Below the pieces are notes generated by a model. That model did not search any database and was not told the origin of the DNA. It was given only the letters and a program-made list of their open reading frames with translations. A DNA stretch of 64,000 nucleotides. Source: an uncultured Pseudomonadales bacterium (GTDB taxonomy: Bacteria > Pseudomonadota > Gammaproteobacteria > Pseudomonadales > Azotimanducaceae). The DNA is taken from positions 3,829,809 through 3,893,808 of the forward strand of contig OY282455.1 of the NCBI GenBank assembly GCA_958296195.1, written 5' to 3'. This document shows positions 45,541-55,049 of this stretch, piece by piece (position 1 is the first letter of the stretch; each line of letters starts with the position of its first letter). Made by a program: the position numbers and the translations under genes.

Positions 45541-45656
45541 GACTCCCACACAGGCAGCAAAAACAGTTACTCTTCACCCCAAGTCGCGGATGACAGTTGC
45601 CGCTTGAGTGCCAACTCCCTTGGAGGAATGGGGCCGCGCAGCCCCAAGAGGAACCG

Positions 45657-46766
45657 ATGGCCGCAGTGCAAAAGCATTTTGCCGCACCTACCCAGTCACA
45701 CCAAGAAGCCATAGCCTGTCCACGTCGGGGCAGCGTTGTGGATGTCTTCTGCGGCATCGGGGGCCTAAGCCACGGCTTCGTGTCGGAGGGCTTTGACGTC
45801 AGGGCGGGAATCGACATTGACGCCTCCTGCCGCTACGCCTACGAGCGCAACAATGGAGCTAGGTTCATCGGTCGGGACGTTGGCGATCTGCGTGGTGGCG
45901 AAATCAACCACCTGTTCGCCAAAGACGAACCGCGCATCTTGGTCGGCTGCGCACCATGCCAGCCCTTTTCCACTTACAGCCAGAACCGGTCCGATGCGAA
46001 ATGGCGGCTGCTCGCGGAATTCGGGCGCCTTGTAAGTGAAGTTCAACCCGATGTGGTTTCAATGGAGAACGTCCCGCGCCTCACCAGCTTCCACAAGGGC
46101 GAACTGTTCAAGCAATTCGTGGCGGCGCTTGAAACGGCCGGCTACGATGTCCGGCCGAAGGTCGTCAACTGCGCGGACTACGGGGTGCCGCAGACTCGCC
46201 TGCGCTTGGTGGTGCTGGCTTCAAGAGTTGGTCCCATCGAGCTGATGCCACCAACACATGCGGCCGATGCACATGTGACGGTACGAGATGCCATCGCCCA
46301 CCTACCGCCGATCACCGCCGGCGGCAAAGACGCCGAGGATCCGCTGCACTATGCCAGCCGGCTGTCCGAGACCAATCTCGCCCGCATCCGCGAGGCAAAG
46401 CCCGGCCAATCCTGGCGCGACTGGAAGCCAGCGCTTGTCGCCCCATGCCACCGCAAGCACTCCGGGCGCTGGTATCAAAGCGTGTACGGCAGAATGCACT
46501 GGGATGCGCCCGCGCCGACCATCACGACGCAATGCAATGGCTTCGGCAACGGCCGATTCGGCCACCCGAAACAGGATCGCGCCATTTCGCTGCGTGAGGC
46601 GGCTCTGTTGCAGACGTTTCCTGAGGGCTACGAGTTCTTTGACCCGAACGAACGCTGGTTCGTTTCAGCGGCCGCACGCTGGATCGGAAACGCCGTGCCA
46701 GTGGCGCTGGCAAGAGCCGTGGCGCGGAGCGTGGCGCGGGCGCTGGAGGGCAAGAGCGATGCCTAG
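45657..46766 (+). CDS. dcm: DNA (cytosine-5)-methyltransferase
   Basis: Motif I VDVFCGIGGLSHGF, motif IV GCAPCQPFS, motif VI MENVPRL, motif VIII QTRLRLV, motif X GNAVPV. Confidence 0.9.
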   Translation: MAAVQKHFAAPTQSHQEAIACPRRGSVVDVFCGIGGLSHGFVSEGFDVRAGIDIDASCRYAYERNNGARFIGRDVGDLRGGEINHLFAKDEPRILVGCAPCQPFSTYSQNRSDAKWRLLAEFGRLVSEVQPDVVSMENVPRLTSFHKGELFKQFVAALETAGYDVRPKVVNCADYGVPQTRLRLVVLASRVGPIELMPPTHAADAHVTVRDAIAHLPPITAGGKDAEDPLHYASRLSETNLARIREAKPGQSWRDWKPALVAPCHRKHSGRWYQSVYGRMHWDAPAPTITTQCNGFGNGRFGHPKQDRAISLREAALLQTFPEGYEFFDPNERWFVSAAARWIGNAVPVALARAVARSVARALEGKSDA

Positions 46767-48756
46767 CCAACCCGCCAAGCGCCCACTGGAGATGAAGATC
46801 AATCTAAATGCCTTGGAGCATTTGGGAATGAACCTTTACAGCACAATTCCCGCCGTGCTCTCGGAGATCGTCGCCAACGCTTGGGATGCGGATGCCAGCC
46901 AAGTCTCGGTGACGCTCGGTGATGGCGAGATATCCATTAAGGACAATGGCGTCGGCATGACGCGGGACGAGGTGATAGATCGCTTCCTGAATGTCGGCTT
47001 CCAGCGACGTTCCGAGATGGGTTCGATGACTCCCAGAAATAGGAAGCCGATGGGACGCAAGGGCATCGGCAAGCTATCGTCCTTCTCGATAGCGAACGTC
47101 GTGACTGTCTATACGGCCCGCGATGATGAACAAACAGCGTTCCGCATGGACGCGGCGAAGATCAGGGAGCAGATGCGGCGGGACGACGGCGATGCGTACC
47201 ATCCCGAAGAGATCAACCATGCGCCGGAGAAAAGGCAATCGGGAACATGCATCGTTCTGACTGCCCTGAAACATAGCGCCACCCAACAGACGTCACGAAG
47301 CCTGCGCCAACGCATTGCGAGGCGCTTTTCGATAATCGGTCCGCGGAACGGGTTCTCCGTATCCGTAGATAACGACGACGTCCGCCCCGAAGACCGCGGC
47401 TACTACCAACATGTCGAGTATTGCTGGACCTACGGCGATCAAGAGGAGACCGTGGGCCGCTTCTCAAGGCTAGCGGACGGACAGCCGCCAATGGACCGAA
47501 CAGCGGAAGCTATGAAGGCCGCCAGAAATCTAGACATCACTGGCTGGATCGGCACCGTCCAACGCTCCGGCTTACTGAAAACCGAAGATGGGGAAAACTT
47601 GAACCGTCTCGCCATCTTCATGCGCGGCAAGGTTGCTCACGAGGACCTTCTTGGAGACTTCGGACTAAAGGAGATATTCGCAGACTATGTCGTTGGTGAG
47701 ATTCACTGCGATAGTCTCGACCAAGACGACGACGAGGACATCGCTACCAGCAGCCGTCAAACCCTCAAGCATGACGACCCGAGATTTAGAAAAATACGAG
47801 ATGTGGTCCACAAAGAACTTCGCCACATCGCCAACCAATGGAGTGAGCTACGCAACCGCCATGGCTCCAAGGTATTCTGCAAGGAAGTGCCGGCTGTTGC
47901 GGAGTGGCTCGGTGACCTGCAGGGCGATACTAGAAAAAAGGCGGAAAGATGGATTGGACGTCTCAATGTGTTGAAGTCAGGAGACGAAACCAAGCGTGAA
48001 TTGCTAAAGGCGTCTATCCTAGCCTTTGAGAGCTATCGCCGGAAAGAGCAATTAGACTTTCTGGAGAATATGTCGGATGAGAACATAGAGCCGATCCTTC
48101 AAGTCTTCGATGATATAGACGACCTACAGCTAAGTTACTATGGGCAGATTGTCAAACTCCGCCTTGGCGTGATTAAAACTCTGGAACAGAAACTCAATAC
48201 CGACCAGAAGGAAATTGTGATTCGAGATCACATCTACAAACACCTTTGGTTGCTGGACCCATCTTGGGAGAGGGTCAAGGGATCAGAAGCGAAAGAAAAA
48301 CGAATTACCAACTTCCTGAAGGAAGACTCACAAGGTCTAACGGCGCAGGAACGCAGGGCGCGTATTGACATTGGCTACAGAACAGCGCAAGGCCGACATG
48401 TGATTATCGAGTTGAAGCGAGCATCCGTGCAAACGCCAGTGGACGAACTAACCCGACAGATCAGAAAGTACCGTAGTGGAGCGAAGCAGCTAATCGCCAA
48501 AACGGACTTTCCGAATTGGCAGGTCGACATTATTTGCCTTGTTGGGAGGCCGCCGCCAGAATGGAATGAAGGTGATGGCAAGAAAGACGTTGAAAGAGCA
48601 CTTGCAAGCGTCGAAGCTCGATTGATGTTCTATGATAGCCTACTGGATCAATCGCAAAGAGCTTATGCAGACTACCTTGAAGAACACAAGAAAATTGATC
48701 GATTGTGGAAGATATTCGAAGGTATTGATGATTTTGCTGAGGCAGCAAGCGACTAG
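46758..48756 (+). CDS. GHKL (Bergerat-fold, HATPase_c_3/paraMORC-like) ATPase fused to a C-terminal PD-(D/E)xK-like nuclease motif
   Basis: N-box EIVANAWDADAS, G1 box KDNGVGM and G2 box GRKGIGKLSSF near the N-terminus. IDIGYRTAQGRHVIIELKR lies near the C-terminus. It overlaps the dcm stop by 9 bp. Confidence 0.7.
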
Positions 48757-51296
48757 GATGCCAGCAGCGCATTCAGCCGCTGTTCCCACTCATCCTCATC
48801 CACCACCTCGAAGCGCACCACCTTGTTGCGCATGGCCGGCGCGAAGGTGGCCCAATCCGTCTTCTTGGCGTGTTCGGAGCAGATGTCGAACACCGAGCGC
48901 TTGTAGGCCGTGTCGGCGGACTCCTTCAGGTGGACGCCCTTGGTTTCGACCACGAACACTTGGTGGAACTGGTCGTCTTGGTCGGGCTCGTCGGGCTTGA
49001 GGGTGAGGATGAAGTCAGCATAGATGCGCTGCGGCCTCCAAGCCTGCACATAGTAGTCCTTGCGGGAGCGGTTGCGGTACCAGAAGAACAGCCTCGCCTG
49101 CCGGTCCAGATAGGTGGCCACCTTGTTCTCCAGGCCGTTCAGGTCGCCCTCGCCGGTGCGGTCGAACAGGTTGAGTTGGTATTGGGCGCCGTCCTCTCGG
49201 TTGGCTTGGCGTTCCGTTGCCGGTGCATCGATCTGAACGGGCAAGCGGTTGCACTGCAAGTCCTCGGTGACGACGATGAAGCGCACCGTGCCGGCGTCCA
49301 AAAGCTCAGCGAACACCTGCTTGGATAGGCGGTCGCGTTCCGCCTCCAAACGCTTGCGCAGTTCCTCCAGCACGAACATGTAGTTGCCGACCACCTGTTC
49401 GCGGGGATGCCTTGCCAGCAGCGCGTTGAAGACCCTTTGCGCCGCCTCGGCGCCGCGCCACGGGTTGGGCATCGCATCGAGCAGGTGGCTGGCGGCGAAG
49501 TAGTAGTCGATGTCGCCGTCCCCCTCTTGGGCGGACAGCCCGCCCGCCGCCGCGTCAGGGTCGGAGAAGAAGGGTTCGGCGTCCAGCCCGGTACGCAGCG
49601 CCACATCCCCGCGCCCTTGCGCCTCAAGCGGCAAGTCGAACAGCGGGGTGACGTCCACCTCGTCCCAAGGCACCCGGGAGAGGATGTCCGCTTCATAGTG
49701 GACCAGCCGCCACTCGCGCCCGTCGCGGATCATGAATGTCGGCAGCACCAGATCCCGGGCGGCCTTGCGGAAACCCTCCCTTTGCATGGAGGTCACCAGA
49801 TCGCCGGAGCGCACCGCGCCTTCTTCGGCCTTGATGCGGGCCTCCAAGCCCTGCAACCCCTCAAGGCCGAACCCCTTGCGCACCTCCTGCAGGAGATCTT
49901 TGCCGCGGCGTTGGAAGCAGAAGACGTAGCTCTCATCCAAGGCCGCAACGCCGGTCTTGGCGGCGTAGGGCTGGCGCAGGATGCGGCCCACCAATTGCGT
50001 CAAGGCGCTCTTGGAACTTGGGTTGGTGAGAATGGCCAGAACATAGGCGAAGGAGCAGTCCCAGCCCTCCTGCAGCGCCTGCTTGGTGATGATGAAGCGG
50101 ATGGGGCAATCCCGGGAGAGCAGCCCGCCGGCTTCATCCACCACCTTCAATTCGTCGCGCTGGCTGGTCTTCACTGCAACCTGTTCGGCCGTGATGGCCG
50201 GATGGCGCAGCAGGTATTCACGCACGTCCTCCGCGTGAATGAACCCAGCTTGGCGCTGATCCTTTCCGGTGCGCTCCACCTGCACCAAGCAGATGGGGCG
50301 AATGTAGGTGCCCGTCTCCGCTTCGTGCCGCCGCGCCTCGCCCTCCAAGGCTTGGCGATGCTCGATGGCGGCCAGCAGCGTATCCCGCCAACTGACGCTG
50401 GCTTTGTTCTGAATGTGTAAGTCCAGCTTGATCATCTCCTCCGCGTTCAGCGCTTGGCCGGAAATGTCCACCAGCACGTTCGCCTCCCGCGGCGGCGTGG
50501 CGGAAAGCTCCACGATCATGCAGGGGTTGAAGCCTTCGAGCGTCTTCTTGGCGTTGCGGCTGTACGCCTTGTGGCCTTCGTCCAGAATGATGAGCGGCTG
50601 CAGCAGGCGCAGAGTGTTGCCCAGCGAAGTCTTGGCCCGCCGACCCCAAACGCCGCCGGCGGAATCGAAAACGTCCAGATTGGGGACTTCCGCCAACAGC
50701 CGCTCGTGAGCGCGCGCATCGTCATCGGCGGGAAAGAAGCGGTCGAAGCCGCCGCTGTCCCGGAACATCCGCAGTTGCTCCTTGGTTTCGCGGTTCGCCG
50801 ACGGCAGCATCAGCAGCAACACGCACAGCCGCTCGCGCACATCCTGCGGCCCGAAGCCGCTGTTCTTCTCCAGCACCAGGGTTCGGCCGGCGGAGGCGAC
50901 GTCGAGTTGCTGGCGGTAGGGGTGGTCGCGGTCCTTGAGCGCCTTCAGGGTTTGGCTGTATATCTGGGTGCTGGGCACGATCCACAGCACCAAGCCGTTT
51001 TGCCGGCGGCGGTAGCGCGTGTGTACCAAGTCGATCACCTTGGTGGCCAGCAGCGTCTTGCCGCCGCCGGTGGGAACTTTCAGGCAGAAGGCGGGCAGCG
51101 GCTCGCCCAAGCCGTTCTTGCGCGGCAGGTAGGGGCGGTGGGGGACGGATTTCTCCCACGCCTTCGCCACCCAGTCGATGGCGAGGTCGGGAACGGTCTC
51201 ATGCGCCTGCGCCGCCTTTAGCCGCCATTCCGTCAGCCGTTCAAGGAACTCCCGCACTTGGCTGAGTGCATTCTTCTGGAACTCCTTGAGAATCAT
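48753..51296 (-). CDS. res: Type III restriction enzyme Res subunit (SF2 helicase-nuclease)
   Basis: Walker A VPTGGGKTLLA, the DEAH-like ILDEGHKAY and helicase motif VI QLVGRILRQ. 847 aa. ATGA overlap with mod. Confidence 0.85.
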   Translation of the reverse strand: MILKEFQKNALSQVREFLERLTEWRLKAAQAHETVPDLAIDWVAKAWEKSVPHRPYLPRKNGLGEPLPAFCLKVPTGGGKTLLATKVIDLVHTRYRRRQNGLVLWIVPSTQIYSQTLKALKDRDHPYRQQLDVASAGRTLVLEKNSGFGPQDVRERLCVLLLMLPSANRETKEQLRMFRDSGGFDRFFPADDDARAHERLLAEVPNLDVFDSAGGVWGRRAKTSLGNTLRLLQPLIILDEGHKAYSRNAKKTLEGFNPCMIVELSATPPREANVLVDISGQALNAEEMIKLDLHIQNKASVSWRDTLLAAIEHRQALEGEARRHEAETGTYIRPICLVQVERTGKDQRQAGFIHAEDVREYLLRHPAITAEQVAVKTSQRDELKVVDEAGGLLSRDCPIRFIITKQALQEGWDCSFAYVLAILTNPSSKSALTQLVGRILRQPYAAKTGVAALDESYVFCFQRRGKDLLQEVRKGFGLEGLQGLEARIKAEEGAVRSGDLVTSMQREGFRKAARDLVLPTFMIRDGREWRLVHYEADILSRVPWDEVDVTPLFDLPLEAQGRGDVALRTGLDAEPFFSDPDAAAGGLSAQEGDGDIDYYFAASHLLDAMPNPWRGAEAAQRVFNALLARHPREQVVGNYMFVLEELRKRLEAERDRLSKQVFAELLDAGTVRFIVVTEDLQCNRLPVQIDAPATERQANREDGAQYQLNLFDRTGEGDLNGLENKVATYLDRQARLFFWYRNRSRKDYYVQAWRPQRIYADFILTLKPDEPDQDDQFHQVFVVETKGVHLKESADTAYKRSVFDICSEHAKKTDWATFAPAMRNKVVRFEVVDEDEWEQRLNALLAS

Positions 51297-53089
51297 CGCG
51301 CCAGCCGCTCCGCTGTTTCATAGATCTCGAACGGCAGTTGCTGGAAGGTGATGCGGTGGCGGTGCAGGAACTCCTGATCGACGTACTTCGTCGGCGCGAA
51401 CACCAGCTTGTCGCGTTTGCTGCGGGAGAGCTTGCGGACGACGTCCAGGGTCAGCGCCATGTCCTTGAGCCGCTCGAATTCGTCCGTGTAGATCAGGAAC
51501 ACATCGGTGTTCCGGCTTTTGCCGATGAACCATCGCTCCGGCCGCATCCCTGCCGCCTCGAACTCCTCGCCGGTGGCGGTGAAGAAGATGTACGCCGCCA
51601 ACTTCTCGTAGCTCGGCAGCTTGTCGGGGTGCAGCATGGACTCCTTGCGCAGCGCTTTGCCGAGCTTGAAGTAGCTGAAGGTGCCGCCCAGCCCGTCCGT
51701 CCTTTCGGTGATGCGCTTTTCCCCCGTGACGATCAACTTGTCGTTTTTGACCTCCTTCCTAATTTTGTCGAAACGCCCGCCTTCCCGTCCCTCCAGCGCC
51801 TCCACCTCGGCAACCAAGCCGTCGGCCCGCTTAAGAGTGGCCCAGGACAGCTTCTCGTTCAGCAGCTCCGTTCTCTGCACGCCGGTGTGCCCGTAGCCCT
51901 TGATGACCCGCCGCACCCGCTCCGCGGTGATGCGGTCCACATAGTCCTCGCACTCGATAAGCACGAAGCGGCGGTTGCCGCCGTCGGCCTTGTTGAGGGC
52001 GAGGACCGCGTGGGCGGTGGTGCCGGAACCGGCGAAGGAGTCTAGGATGATGGAGTCCTTGTCGGTTGCCATCCGAATAATGTGGCGAATGAGCGACGAC
52101 GGTTTAGGGGTAATAAAAACATCGTTGGACGTCTCGAAGTCAAGTATCGACACAATCTCCCGCTTGGAGTCCTGCGTGTGCCCCACTTCCTGATAAGTCC
52201 ACAACGTCTGCGGTACGCGACCTTGTTTTGTCTCAGAAAGAAATATCTTCGGTGCCGGCACATTGTTGCCGTCTTGTCCCCACCAAATACGACCATCGGC
52301 GTCAAGTTCCCTAAGTCGTTCCTCAGACACCCGCCAATACGACCCTCGCGGTGGGCCATCAACTATGCGCCCGCTCGGACAGATAATCGGGTACACGCCC
52401 TTGCTGTAGTAGTTTCTTGCCGCCAAGTTGTTGGGGCGCCAAGGGCCTCGTGGATCGTTGTCTGGATTTCGATAAATTGCATCCTGTGCCTTGGTTCTCG
52501 GCAACAGGTTGGGTGACCAAGCATTGTGATCGCGAGCGTATACGACGATGAAGTCATGGTCTTCCGAGAAGTGCTTGGCTGAACTCTTGGGCGCATATAC
52601 TTTCTGCCAAACTACCGTCGCAACAAAATTCTCCTCCCCAAAAACCTCATCCATCAACGAGCGCAGCCGATGCACCTCGTTGTCGTCAATGGAAACGAAA
52701 ATCGCCCCGTCGTCGCGCAGCAACTCGCGCAGCAGCTTCAGGCGCGGCAGCATCATGCAGCACCACTTATCGTGGCGGGTCAGGTCGTCCCGGTCCACCA
52801 CCTTGCCGAGCCAATCCTTCATCAGTGGGGAGTTCACGCGGTCGTTGTACGCCCAGCCCTCGTTGCCGGTGTTGTAGGGCGGATCGATGGTGATGCACTT
52901 GACCTTGCCGTGATGGGTCGGCAGCAACGCCTTCAGCGCCGCCAGGTTGTCCCCCTCAATAATCAGATTGTCATGCAGGCTGGCCTTCTTGGAGAGCCCC
53001 TTGCCGCGCACAGACGTCAACTCGTGGTACGGCACCCCCAGATGGAAGTTCTCCACAAACACCCTTCCCTTGAATTGCAGCAACGACAT
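51293..53089 (-). CDS. mod: Type III Mod-like (beta-class) DNA methyltransferase, N6-adenine or N4-cytosine
   Basis: Motif IV IDPPYN precedes motif I DSFAGSGTTAHAV. The N-terminus MSLLQFKGRVFVENFHLGVPYHEL is typical. A GGAG RBS precedes the ATG at 53089. Confidence 0.85.
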   Translation of the reverse strand: MSLLQFKGRVFVENFHLGVPYHELTSVRGKGLSKKASLHDNLIIEGDNLAALKALLPTHHGKVKCITIDPPYNTGNEGWAYNDRVNSPLMKDWLGKVVDRDDLTRHDKWCCMMLPRLKLLRELLRDDGAIFVSIDDNEVHRLRSLMDEVFGEENFVATVVWQKVYAPKSSAKHFSEDHDFIVVYARDHNAWSPNLLPRTKAQDAIYRNPDNDPRGPWRPNNLAARNYYSKGVYPIICPSGRIVDGPPRGSYWRVSEERLRELDADGRIWWGQDGNNVPAPKIFLSETKQGRVPQTLWTYQEVGHTQDSKREIVSILDFETSNDVFITPKPSSLIRHIIRMATDKDSIILDSFAGSGTTAHAVLALNKADGGNRRFVLIECEDYVDRITAERVRRVIKGYGHTGVQRTELLNEKLSWATLKRADGLVAEVEALEGREGGRFDKIRKEVKNDKLIVTGEKRITERTDGLGGTFSYFKLGKALRKESMLHPDKLPSYEKLAAYIFFTATGEEFEAAGMRPERWFIGKSRNTDVFLIYTDEFERLKDMALTLDVVRKLSRSKRDKLVFAPTKYVDQEFLHRHRITFQQLPFEIYETAERLAR

Positions 53090-53131: not shown

Positions 53132-53380
53132 CTATGAGCCTTGAAAATGAAGTCCACAAGGCGTCCGCAGCCCGAAGCCAGCCGAGCCTAATCGCTGACC
53201 AGACCGTTTGCTATTCAGGCCATTGGAATTGATTAGGAGTCCATTCACAACATTAGCTGGCCGCAGACAGTACGCCAGATTACGCTCGCGGTCTTGGACC
53301 TCTATCGCAAAGGGCTTGTCCCCAATTACTTGTGACCTAGGCGCTTCGGTGCAACGTTCCGGTTTTAGCAACGACGACAT
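53132..53380 (-). CDS. possible small ORF (82 aa) filling the gap between the accessory genes and mod
   Basis: It has an ATG start and the same strand, and its spacing to both neighbours is tight. It has no recognisable motif and could be non-coding leader. Confidence 0.3.
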   Translation of the reverse strand: MSSLLKPERCTEAPRSQVIGDKPFAIEVQDRERNLAYCLRPANVVNGLLINSNGLNSKRSGQRLGSAGFGLRTPCGLHFQGS

Positions 53381-53385
53381 CGATT

Positions 53386-53811
53386 CTACTTAGGGCGACG
53401 AAGAAATCTGACCGGACGCCCGTAGTCAGGAACGGATATGGAGGCCAAGTCATGATGCTCAATATCTTCAAGGCTGCCTAGCTTGCTCGTCCACAAGCCC
53501 GAAGACAATTGCCTAGCAACATGAGTGAACTGGCCACCATCCCCACCATAGATGGCGATCTTCTCAAACCCCTGCTCGTACTGGGGTGTCGCGCACAACT
53601 CAAAGCCCAACGACGCAAACATATCGGCATACGCAGCTATCGAGCCGTCTCGACTTGCGTTGTTGGGCCAATATCCAAAGAGGTGGTCCCACCAAGCATC
53701 GGTTTTCCCTGCCGCCCACGCCACGCAATTGTAAGCGCAGTCCCGGGGGCTGGTTACTCTGTGATTCCCTCCCTTGAGTTTGGGAAATAGTTCGGTCAAT
53801 GGGTTGGCCAT
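53386..53811 (-). CDS. hypothetical protein (141 aa) with a conserved-looking Cys/His pair, possibly a papain/NlpC-P60-like fold
   Basis: CAYNCVAWAAGKTDAWW ... QFTHVARQL ... WTSKLGSLEDIEH. An AGGA RBS follows directly after the upstream stop, with an 8-bp gap. Confidence 0.5.
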   Translation of the reverse strand: MANPLTELFPKLKGGNHRVTSPRDCAYNCVAWAAGKTDAWWDHLFGYWPNNASRDGSIAAYADMFASLGFELCATPQYEQGFEKIAIYGGDGGQFTHVARQLSSGLWTSKLGSLEDIEHHDLASISVPDYGRPVRFLRRPK

Positions 53812-53819
53812 CGTTCCTG

Positions 53820-54785
53820 CTATATCAAGTTCCGATTGCGGCCCCACTTGAGCCAGGCGTTCCGCATTGCATCGAACTTGCCGATGTCGCCGGTGGCCAC
53901 CGGATCCTCTCCGGAGATTGCTCGGAGAGCCCAAAACCAGTGATTGGGTTCAATAGACAGCTTCTTCAGAATCAGCGGCAGGGCATCGCGCCCGAGACCA
54001 ATGATTTCTTGGTAGCTCCGGTGCAGGACTATGTTCGACATCACTGAATGGTGCATAGTTTCAGATTTCCATTTTTCTGCAAGGTCATTGAAGTGCCTTT
54101 CCAATTCTTGTCCACATGGGATGTTTCTATCCGTTCCTAGGATTTCCGACAGCTTCTTCCAAGAGAGGACATTGCTCTTACTCAGGTAGGACATTTCGAT
54201 CATGAACTTGACTTGACCATTTTTGATCAGCTCCTCCCGGCAATCGCCAACTACGAACGGAACCACCTTCTTCTTGCTGCCGGTAAGTTCGACGAGGATT
54301 CTCGCCATAACATACTGTCGGATGAGTTGATGCACGAGAATATACTCAAGGGAGGCACCGAATTTAGCCTCGCATTTGACCTCCCCGATGCACAAGTGCT
54401 TCGGCGTTTGGAGAACGACATCAACCTCGGTGCGGAATAGGTTGTCATATAGCGACGGCTTGCATTTGTAGTTGTCCTTTTCCAGCTCCCGGAACTCATC
54501 AGAGCGCTCAATCTCCTGCCGTAAGCGGGGGAAGCAACTGCGATAGCATTCAAGAACCTGTTTCCTATAGTGCTCCACATCTGGGTGTTCTTGGCAGCGC
54601 TGATGTATATAGTCGCGCATGCCATACCAAAACAGCTCGAATTCAATGTTGTCGCCGTGTTGCTCCCTCGAGCCAAGGAGATGACTGGCGAGGGAAATGC
54701 GGGCATCTGGTTTCTCAACCAAGGGAGATAGGACGCTCGCCGTGCGCCAATTCTCGGTTCTGTTCTTGATGTCAAGTATGCCCAT
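53820..54785 (-). CDS. hypothetical protein (321 aa) with a PD-(D/E)xK-like nuclease motif
   Basis: TEVDVVLQTPKHLCIGEVKCEAKF (D...E-x-K) is encoded at about 54375-54425. A distinct C-terminal ~90 aa includes EPNHWFWALRAISGEDPV. The DNA is A/T-rich. Confidence 0.5.
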   Translation of the reverse strand: MGILDIKNRTENWRTASVLSPLVEKPDARISLASHLLGSREQHGDNIEFELFWYGMRDYIHQRCQEHPDVEHYRKQVLECYRSCFPRLRQEIERSDEFRELEKDNYKCKPSLYDNLFRTEVDVVLQTPKHLCIGEVKCEAKFGASLEYILVHQLIRQYVMARILVELTGSKKKVVPFVVGDCREELIKNGQVKFMIEMSYLSKSNVLSWKKLSEILGTDRNIPCGQELERHFNDLAEKWKSETMHHSVMSNIVLHRSYQEIIGLGRDALPLILKKLSIEPNHWFWALRAISGEDPVATGDIGKFDAMRNAWLKWGRNRNLI

Positions 54786-55049
54786 CGTCTGTTCCCCTCG
54801 TCGCACTCGGGTCCTGAGAGCCGTGCCCAGAAAAACCCGTGCGTTCGTCGACCTCACTGCGCATTGTCCTTCAGGTCAGGTGGCTGTGTCCACCGCTAGC
54901 GCTTCCCGGTAGCCACTAGAGCACCTCAGCCGGTGCTCGGCTTACGCGCCGTAGAAATGGTGCCATCCGCCGAAGCTGTTGATGGTGTTCGACTTTCCGC
55001 GCACCGATCACTACACTTCCCTTCCGCAAACTTCCCGAAAGACTGGGCC

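Follow-up and report, generated by a model that had tools for sequence, protein, structure and literature searches.

A Cdom-DUF7689 gene pair with a predicted nuclease fusion beside a Type III restriction-modification operon: a possible toxin-antitoxin-like or conflict module

The DNA analysed here, a stretch of 64,000 nucleotides (nt) of contig OY282455.1 from an uncultured Pseudomonadales bacterium that is called the window as a whole, carries on one strand a Type III restriction-modification (R-M) operon, mod-res, and three tightly packed open reading frames (ORFs) upstream of it, which are designated as A, B, and ORF C (Table 1). These ORFs had been reported in a reading of the letters alone (the sequence-only reading), whose coordinates and spacings we reproduced: 8 nt lie between the stop codon of A and the ATG of B, 5 nt between the stop codon of B and the ATG of ORF C, and 42 nt between the stop codon of ORF C and the ATG of mod. 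Loci used for comparison are designated as L001, L002, L003-L082, L120, and so forth. A is composed of a nuclease-like N-terminal domain (N-domain), a short variable linker, and a C-terminal domain (Cdom), and B is a member of the DUF7689 family. We found that Cdom is the obligate partner family of DUF7689, encoded next to it in every locus searched, and that A and B form an autonomous cassette, independent of the Type III operon. At a little under even confidence, we tentatively regard the cassette as a toxin-antitoxin (TA)-like or conflict module of its own, in which the Cdom-DUF7689 pair has acquired a nuclease fusion.

Both A and B are real genes. The GC contents at the three codon positions of A (0.55/0.34/0.64) are typical of coding sequence, and its N-terminus (M-G-I-L-x-I-x-NRTENW) aligns with those of 97 homologues. 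About 470 homologues of A were collected, only about 22 of which are full length (62-86% identity); the rest are about 220 aa (amino acids) long and correspond to residues 1-215 only. The separate C-terminal domain that the sequence-only reading had set apart is borne out as a unit of about 95 aa, absent from more than 400 homologues and existing on its own elsewhere. In the AlphaFold2 model of A, with a mean predicted local distance difference test (pLDDT) score of 87.4, the linker is the least confident (pLDDT 66-75) and also the most variable part of the protein.

To define the partner of DUF7689, a hidden Markov model (HMM) of Cdom, built from residues 225-321 of 22 full-length A proteins, was run against the six-frame ORFs of 82 DUF7689 loci, namely 80 loci from GTDB genomes together with L001 and L002. 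In all 82 loci, the ORF that immediately precedes the DUF7689 gene on its strand matched Cdom (E 1e-15 to 1e-57). The same arrangement was present in 33 of 33 IMG/VR contigs, so that the pair was observed in 115/115 loci (82 genomic and 33 viral-contig). An HMM of the N-domain matched only L001 and L002 among the 82 loci. The distance from the Cdom stop codon to the DUF7689 start codon, as extrapolated, had a median of -3 nt and was within +-40 nt in 80 of the 82. Since Cdom is the universal partner of DUF7689, A is to be seen as this partner fused to a nuclease-like domain. An analysis of co-occurrence across genomes had been suggested for the two genes, and it recovered a strict pairing of Cdom with DUF7689 but no linkage to Type III systems.

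The Cdom family is characterized by the motif F..LA..W..ET...S......H.xYQxIIGLG..ALPLIL..L...PNHWFWALRAI(S/T)GEDP......G....M..AWL.WG. and has neither a Pfam model nor a relative in the PDB. Stand-alone Cdom proteins are mostly 94-160 aa long and have variable N-terminal extensions. When the profile was searched against 1.84 billion cluster representatives, 10,053 matched at E <= 1e-3, of which 8,287 remained at E <= 1e-10; nearly all of these proteins are 110-240 aa long and have Cdom at the C-terminus. The family thus comprises about 10,000 clusters at 50% identity, and some members have two Cdom units in tandem (P0304-P0308, P0316, and P0426). Other domains occasionally occupy the N-terminal position. 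In L065 (Planctomycetota, ~4712-5989), a SIR2_2 domain is fused N-terminal to Cdom (E 8e-11), and in L034 (~5210-6001), a Type I HsdS target-recognition fragment is fused to Cdom directly downstream of hsdM, which makes L034 a further copy of the pair set against an R-M system. A scan of 52 long Cdom proteins gave single matches to GAF, DUF7387, and ICMT and one weak match to Unstab_antitox (E 0.0033).

B was assigned to DUF7689 (PF24738) with an E value of 2.3e-36 and a score of 125.5 bits (cut-off 22.6); its residues 18-137 match positions 1-117 of the 118 of the profile. PF24738 was carried by all 120 listed homologues of B. The protein database yielded at least 282 relatives, and among GTDB species representatives at least 584 places, across many phyla, encode one. 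Among 112 relatives, Y27, N28, W41, W48, W107, S109, K110, D116, and H119 are invariant. The cysteine of NC-x-AWA (C29) and the histidine of THVAR (H97), which had been singled out in the sequence-only reading, proved conserved, each being present in 111 of the 112. From this pattern, C29 and H97, together with D116 or H119, are predicted as candidate catalytic residues. In the AlphaFold2 model of B (pLDDT 93.7), C29 opens a helix (29-33), H97 is in the middle of a strand (94-101), and D116 and H119 are in the strand 116-119. When B is compared with its counterparts in L002 and L120, the substitutions favour third codon positions, and divergence with this bias is seen in both genes of the pair.

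Searches of the PDB by sequence and profile, using B and the DUF7689 profile, gave chance matches only. A Foldseek search of the B model against the PDB gave a best E value of 0.13, which is below significance, and its top list consisted mostly of papain-fold enzymes, including Spr (2k1g, probability 0.72), 4xcm, 3h41, CwlO, LytE, and AvrPphB, along with the deubiquitinases Josephin, USP, and PLpro. The conserved C29 and H97, their placement in a helix and a strand of the model, and the papain-rich though non-significant Foldseek list make it plausible but unproven that B is a papain/NlpC-P60/CHAP-like Cys-His hydrolase. The fold resemblance suggested earlier for B is therefore favoured by the invariant residues, the secondary structure, and the fold-enriched list, but no match reached significance.

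The N-domain contains the D-x12-E-x-K motif noticed earlier, which is real and conserved (97-98 of 98 homologues) and is embedded in a longer signature, T-E120-x-D122 ... G-E135-x-K137 ... H152-Q153. E120 and D122 are present in 98/98 homologues, E135 and K137 each in 97/98, and H152 and Q153 are invariant; the domain also has a distinctive N-terminal NRTENW / ELFWxGMRD region. According to the AlphaFold2 model and DSSP, D122 lies in the strand 121-126 and E135 in the strand 130-136, followed by a helix (153-167) and a strand (173-180), and this modelled strand-strand-helix-strand order is consistent with a PD-(D/E)xK core. No match was obtained with Pfam, NCBIfam, PADLOC, or PHROG, either for A as a whole or for its two halves, and none for the N-domain with the PDB by sequence or profile. 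The best Foldseek E values of A were 0.15 in the PDB and 4e-3 in BFVD (an uncharacterised phage protein), with none at E <= 0.001. Both Foldseek lists were enriched in the restriction-endonuclease fold (among others Nt.BspD6I, R2 endonuclease, VC1899, AF1548, HamA, McrC, Can2, Hjc, NERD, DUF2800, and 'restriction endonuclease'). The earlier description of the first ORF as PD-(D/E)xK-like accordingly agrees with the motif, the predicted secondary structure, and the Foldseek enrichment, but no match reached significance. Because all motif residues are kept, the N-domain is probably catalytically active, as judged from its sequence. Between the window and L001, B, Cdom, and the flanking genes show 97-100% identity, but A as a whole only 86%, including an indel of 13 aa; the divergent patch, at window positions 54400-54640 (A residues ~60-125), corresponds to a helical insert of the N-domain and may reflect either recombination or diversifying selection.

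The relationship between the cassette and the Type III system was examined by comparing loci. L001, from a close relative, represents the same locus (94-96% DNA identity) and carries A, B, ORF C, and mod-res. In L002, where A is 82% identical, A and B are joined by the same 8-nt junction, with neither ORF C nor an R-M system and with metabolic neighbours. In L120 (A 68% and B 82% identical), A and B are again 8 nt apart and no R-M system is present. Since A-B recurs without mod-res in L002 and L120, it does not belong to the Type III operon; mod-res accompanies A-B only in the window and the near-identical L001. Likewise, among the immediate (+-1) neighbours of the 80 wider DUF7689 loci, ResIII accounts for 2 of 132, and N6_N4_Mtase is outside the 25 most frequent families. 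The independent two-gene cassette, one of two arrangements entertained in the sequence-only reading, is therefore supported both by these A-B loci and by the 115 DUF7689 loci, which are independent of Type III systems.

The DNA shared in blastn comparisons spans window positions 53379-54905 and 54911-54997 with L002 and 53393-54892 with L120, which indicates that the cassette ends 7 nt past the stop codon of B and takes in about 210 nt upstream of A; its extent is thus about 53379-54997. No terminal repeats or tRNA were found at its ends as marks of a mobile element. The AAA/PDDEXK_9 gene that lies upstream of A in the window has homologues of 59% identity on either side of the cassette in the unrelated locus L120 (L120:6209-7845 and L120:10720-12372, one of which is split). 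L002 keeps only ~87 nt of the intergenic DNA between A and the AAA gene of the window, and the AAA gene starts ~50 nt beyond. A-B and the ATPase-nuclease gene may travel together.

ORF C is most likely not a gene but spacer or leader DNA between the cassette and mod, as its designation as questionable had anticipated. It has no ribosome-binding site (RBS), unlike mod (GGAG), matches no family in Pfam, NCBIfam, PADLOC, or PHROG, and is not among 15 billion predicted proteins, in which A and B of the same 4.31-Mb contig are present. Its GC content at third codon positions, 0.52, shows no excess, versus 0.64 for A and 0.61 for B, and the neighbouring genes also show the excess. The five substitutions between the window and L001 fall on codon positions 3/0/2, with no third-position bias; for comparison, those between B and its L002 counterpart are distributed 9/4/29. 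ORF C also lies entirely outside the DNA that blastn finds in common with other A-B loci and occurs only in L001. The 82-aa ORF should therefore not be named a gene in annotation.

The core pair is scattered rather than tied to defence islands. The 132 immediate neighbours of the 80 genomic loci, a set that leaves out the TIGR04255 neighbours described below, are heterogeneous and include ABC transporters, gyrB, tRNA synthetases, and dehydrogenases, and only 2-3 of them match PADLOC defence models. The defence-island argument put forward earlier thus holds for the window, but not for the family. PADLOC-DB v2 contains no family for A, B, or ORF C at E up to 1, and a tblastn search with B gave a single weak match among 72,556 plasmids and none among 50,697 GenBank phage records. 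Two copies of the pair are present in some genomes. In L023/L024 (OZ252113.1, Acidobacteriota), identical copies lie ~200 kb apart, each with an IS1595-family transposase gene directly upstream, which hints that the Cdom-DUF7689 pair can be mobilised as cargo of insertion sequences (ISs).

In 21 of the 80 loci, a gene of the uncharacterised TIGR04255 family (~250 aa, NCBIfam E ~1e-40) lies directly upstream of Cdom on the same strand, which suggests a three-gene variant of the module, TIGR04255-Cdom-DUF7689. Examples within L003-L082 are L004:3951-4718, L011:4788-5543, and L073:4556-5305. The possibility that the N-domain of A is related to this TIGR04255 neighbour was rejected (hhalign probability 0.1%). 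A literature search found no mention of DUF7689, PF24738, or TIGR04255.

Relatives of the N-domain without Cdom, of which there are more than 400 of ~220 aa, occur in the 34 loci examined as the products of solo genes, whose contexts vary and which have no Cdom or DUF7689 gene nearby and no methyltransferase alongside. Since the domain stands solo in these proteins, it is evidently tolerated by cells when unregulated. The solo genes are often near ordinary TA pairs, and in one clade the gene occupies a conserved chromosomal site beside fatty-acid oxidation genes. A DUF2779 protein (PF11074, E 6e-40, ~500 aa) adjoins the solo N-domain gene in 11 of 28 loci, examples within L086-L112 being L094:1374-2879, L096:504-1991, and L103:1114-2499, and may represent a second, separate partnership for the nuclease-like domain. 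Two further arrangements were rejected. A three-gene system of N-domain, Cdom, and B is not the general state, as the N-only homologues are solo; L118 is the only split form (N | Cdom | B) and looks like a frameshift. An apparent pairing of Cdom with Fic in L119 is a decayed remnant, in which 'NRTEN' is joined directly to Cdom and B is lost.

In the window, the cassette lies in a defence island with R-M genes. Both mod and res are unambiguous (PADLOC MTase_III E 2e-171 and REase_III E 2e-170; Pfam N6_N4_Mtase and ResIII), and together they make up a Type III system of the ordinary two-gene kind. The central part of mod (window 51694-52601) does not align with L001, a relative that is otherwise 95-98% identical; this fits a target-recognition domain swap and thereby a different specificity. 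Beyond res, a restriction enzyme of the BbrUII/HgiDII family (NCBIfam E 7e-231) and a 389-aa ORF preceding it (45597-48756, plus strand) form a second R-M system, convergent with res; L001 has a C5 DNA methylase (PF00145) at the equivalent position. The gene upstream of A, which is divergent from it, encodes an AAA_35/AAA_22 ATPase with a weak PDDEXK_9 match (54933/55050-56606, plus strand). Just outside the island, two small overlapping ORFs of 98 and 78 aa (58925-59454, plus strand), the latter corresponding to a DUF2283 protein annotated in L001, are probably an ordinary small TA-like pair.

The A-B region is, as described earlier, richer in A/T than its surroundings, with a GC content of 0.51-0.55 (0.52-0.55 between 53 and 55 kb) versus ~0.64 for the window. 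The further claim that it is the most compositionally foreign DNA of the window holds insofar as it is among the stretches of lowest GC, but the minimum is elsewhere (0.506 at 48001-49000). No Rfam family was found in the region of A, B, and ORF C. A scan for promoters and terminators there gave site counts at chance level, and a sigma-70-like site upstream of A (54892-54863) belongs to a type of site that is no commoner than chance.

Table 1. Positions of the cassette, its domains, and the adjoining Type III genes in the window
Feature	Position	Strand	Length or part	Remarks
A	53820-54785	-	321 aa from ATG, start MGILDIK	ORF list and start codon check
B	53386-53811	-	141 aa	DUF7689 protein, predicted Cys-His (papain/NlpC-P60/CHAP-like) hydrolase
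ORF C	53132-53380	-	82 aa	most likely spacer DNA without coding function; outside the A-B cassette
N-domain of A	54141-54785	-	residues 1-215	predicted restriction-endonuclease-like (PD-(D/E)xK)
Cdom of A	53820-54110	-	residues 226-321 and stop codon	all-helical, DUF7689 partner
Upstream leader/promoter region	54786-54997	-		non-coding; travels with A-B; blastn homology to L002 and L120
mod (Type III methyltransferase)	ATG at 53089	-		GGAG 9 nt upstream of ATG
res (Type III)	48753-51296	-

Taking these observations together, we infer that the pair is TA-like, that Cdom binds and regulates B, and that the N-domain is DNA-directed. In the mechanism that we tentatively favour, B would act in the cytoplasm as the harmful component or effector, being a Cys-His hydrolase with an amidase or peptidase activity like that of papain/NlpC-P60/CHAP enzymes, and Cdom would bind B and restrain it in the manner of the upstream partner of a type II TA module. 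Such restraint would account for why the two small genes are strictly paired in a fixed order and why they are scattered among genomes, sometimes in several copies. In the lineage to which the window belongs, the Cdom partner would have gained an N-terminal nuclease domain of the PD-(D/E)xK type; through this domain, the regulator of B would be able to sense or cut DNA, and a plain addiction-type pair would become a composite conflict/defence module. The cassette would have been acquired horizontally and would have landed beside the Type III mod-res operon.

A compact two-gene arrangement, tight or overlapping junctions, and strict co-occurrence, as in TA modules, were all found. The heterogeneous housekeeping neighbours, the two-copy genomes, the GC-poor cassette in the window, and the one weak Unstab_antitox match also support a TA-like module, as does the modular N-terminus of the partner (PD-(D/E)xK in the window, SIR2_2 in L065, HsdS in L034, a separate upstream TIGR04255 gene in 21/80 loci, and split in L118). 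Several points weigh on the other side. No known toxin or antitoxin family in Pfam or NCBIfam matches A, B, or Cdom, and no DNA-binding domain is recognisable in Cdom. The fold assignments of the N-domain and of B both come from motifs and non-significant Foldseek lists. Effector-type domains, such as a nuclease or SIR2, would be unusual on an antitoxin, and these fusions fit a model in which an adaptor tethers an effector at least as well. The pair is also nearly absent from plasmids and GenBank phages, where classical TA modules are common.

The adaptor model leads to the main rival, which we disfavour as unlikely: B would be a cysteine peptidase that recognises Cdom and, when triggered by infection for example, cuts or remodels the protein tethered through Cdom, releasing or activating its N-terminal effector, with Cdom serving as the adaptor or handle. 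The SIR2_2 and nuclease-like domains occupy the same place N-terminal to Cdom, the linker between N-domain and Cdom is the least confidently modelled and most variable part of A, the weak structural neighbours of B include peptidases and deubiquitinases, and the island in the window combines the Type III R-M system, the BbrUII-type enzyme, and the AAA/PDDEXK_9 gene, all of which would suit an effector released by proteolysis. However, the listed Cdom proteins are mostly 110-240 aa long, and scans of the long ones revealed no effector domain; the core pair must therefore work without one. In addition, the linker shows no visible conserved cleavage motif, the core pair is not enriched near defence genes, and the N-domain, being solo and unregulated in the loci examined, seems not to need activation. 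It is chiefly the general lack of effectors on the sampled Cdom proteins and the tolerance of the solo N-domain that count against this model. Release of the N-terminal domain is also central to a broader and rather improbable proposal, in which Cdom-DUF7689 is the core of a new and very widespread conflict or abortive-infection class, the enzyme and the helical adaptor controlling interchangeable effectors by proteolytic or amidolytic release; these effectors would be the PD-(D/E)xK nuclease in the window, SIR2 in L065, and perhaps the TIGR04255 proteins found upstream at about a quarter of the loci. The roles could also be reversed, in a type VII-like manner, with the Cdom protein (and here its fused nuclease) being harmful and B acting as an enzymatic antitoxin that cleaves or modifies it. 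Enzymatic antitoxins are established in type VII TA systems, and here an enzyme is the invariant partner of proteins carrying variable and potentially toxic N-terminal domains. Nevertheless, antitoxin genes usually precede toxin genes, and here it is the small helical protein that is encoded first; nothing obviously toxic is seen in the ~95-aa stand-alone Cdom, and in the loci examined cells tolerate a solo N-domain in the absence of B, which leaves this reversal improbable.

A role outside conflict is likewise not very probable. B would then be an amidase for a small molecule or peptide, for example a glutathione-like or cell-wall-precursor amide, with Cdom as a specificity or accessory subunit and the N-domain as a repair or housekeeping nuclease fused by chance. 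The mostly metabolic and housekeeping neighbours, the near absence of the pair from plasmids and GenBank phage records, and the conserved site of the solo N-domain by fatty-acid oxidation genes in one clade are in line with such a role, but there is no conserved metabolic neighbourhood whatever, and the patchy occurrence across many phyla, the duplicates, the adjacent IS element, and the foreign base composition of the window copy are not. The SIR2 fusion and the R-M-adjacent copies point instead to conflict biology. The least probable is the extended five-gene Type III-like operon that the sequence-only reading had also entertained, in which mod-res would have A, B, and ORF C as its regulators or accessory subunits. 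In its favour, the five ORFs share one strand, the terminator scan predicted nothing between B and mod, and L001 is arranged alike; however, L001 is essentially the same locus, ORF C is probably no gene, and mod has its own RBS after a 296-nt spacer that separates it from B. Together with the occurrence of A-B without mod-res and the rarity of Type III families among DUF7689 neighbours, the comparative loci essentially exclude the accessory reading, and the claim of a five-gene operon is not supported.

Whatever the role, the compact two-gene conflict or TA-like kind is familiar, but the Cdom and DUF7689 families and the fusion of the partner with a nuclease are undescribed. What was a pair of unplaced ORFs is now a defined, testable unit, consisting of a strict pair in which Cdom has about 10,000 clusters and no Pfam model and DUF7689 has a near-invariant Cys/His set, and the nuclease and SIR2 fusions provide a natural way into the function of Cdom. 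If the pair is a TA or defence module, it would represent a new class of enzymatic toxin, a papain-like hydrolase, together with a new partner fold; in this respect, a literature search found nothing specific on papain-like or NlpC toxins in TA systems. If the proposal of a widespread conflict class is true, its regulatory logic would be one not yet described for bacterial immunity.

Several known systems can be compared with the module. It resembles effector-immunity pairs of the NlpC/P60-CHAP kind, such as Tse1-Tsi1, in that a Cys-His enzyme of similar size is predicted for B, with the Cys at a helix N-terminus and the His in a beta-strand of the model, and has a small dedicated partner. It differs from them in that the Cdom partner is encoded upstream, not downstream, that the similarity of B is below significance, and that no obvious signal peptide or trafficking domain was noticed in B, for which no dedicated search was made. 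In the SPARSA, SPARTA, and SPARDA systems, interchangeable SIR2 or PD-(D/E)xK effectors are N-terminal to a small adaptor, with the partner in an adjacent gene. The arrangement of Cdom may be likened to these short prokaryotic Argonaute systems in architecture only, as there is no APAZ or Argonaute homology and most Cdom members appear without an effector domain. As for the N-domain, it has no significant match to a named family and differs from solitary PD-(D/E)xK nucleases of the Type IV-like or NERD-like kind in its NRTENW / ELFWxGMRD region and the frequent DUF2779 neighbour, but shares with them the D...ExK motif, the modelled strand-strand-helix-strand order, and the occurrence as a solo gene. 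Lastly, compared with type II TA modules, the pair has no family match, no DNA-binding domain in the upstream protein, and no precedent found for a papain-like Cys-His toxin; it resembles them in having two small co-directional genes with abutting or overlapping frames, a small helical protein followed by an enzyme of ~145 aa, and a distribution that is scattered among unrelated genes, sometimes multi-copy, and compositionally foreign in the window.

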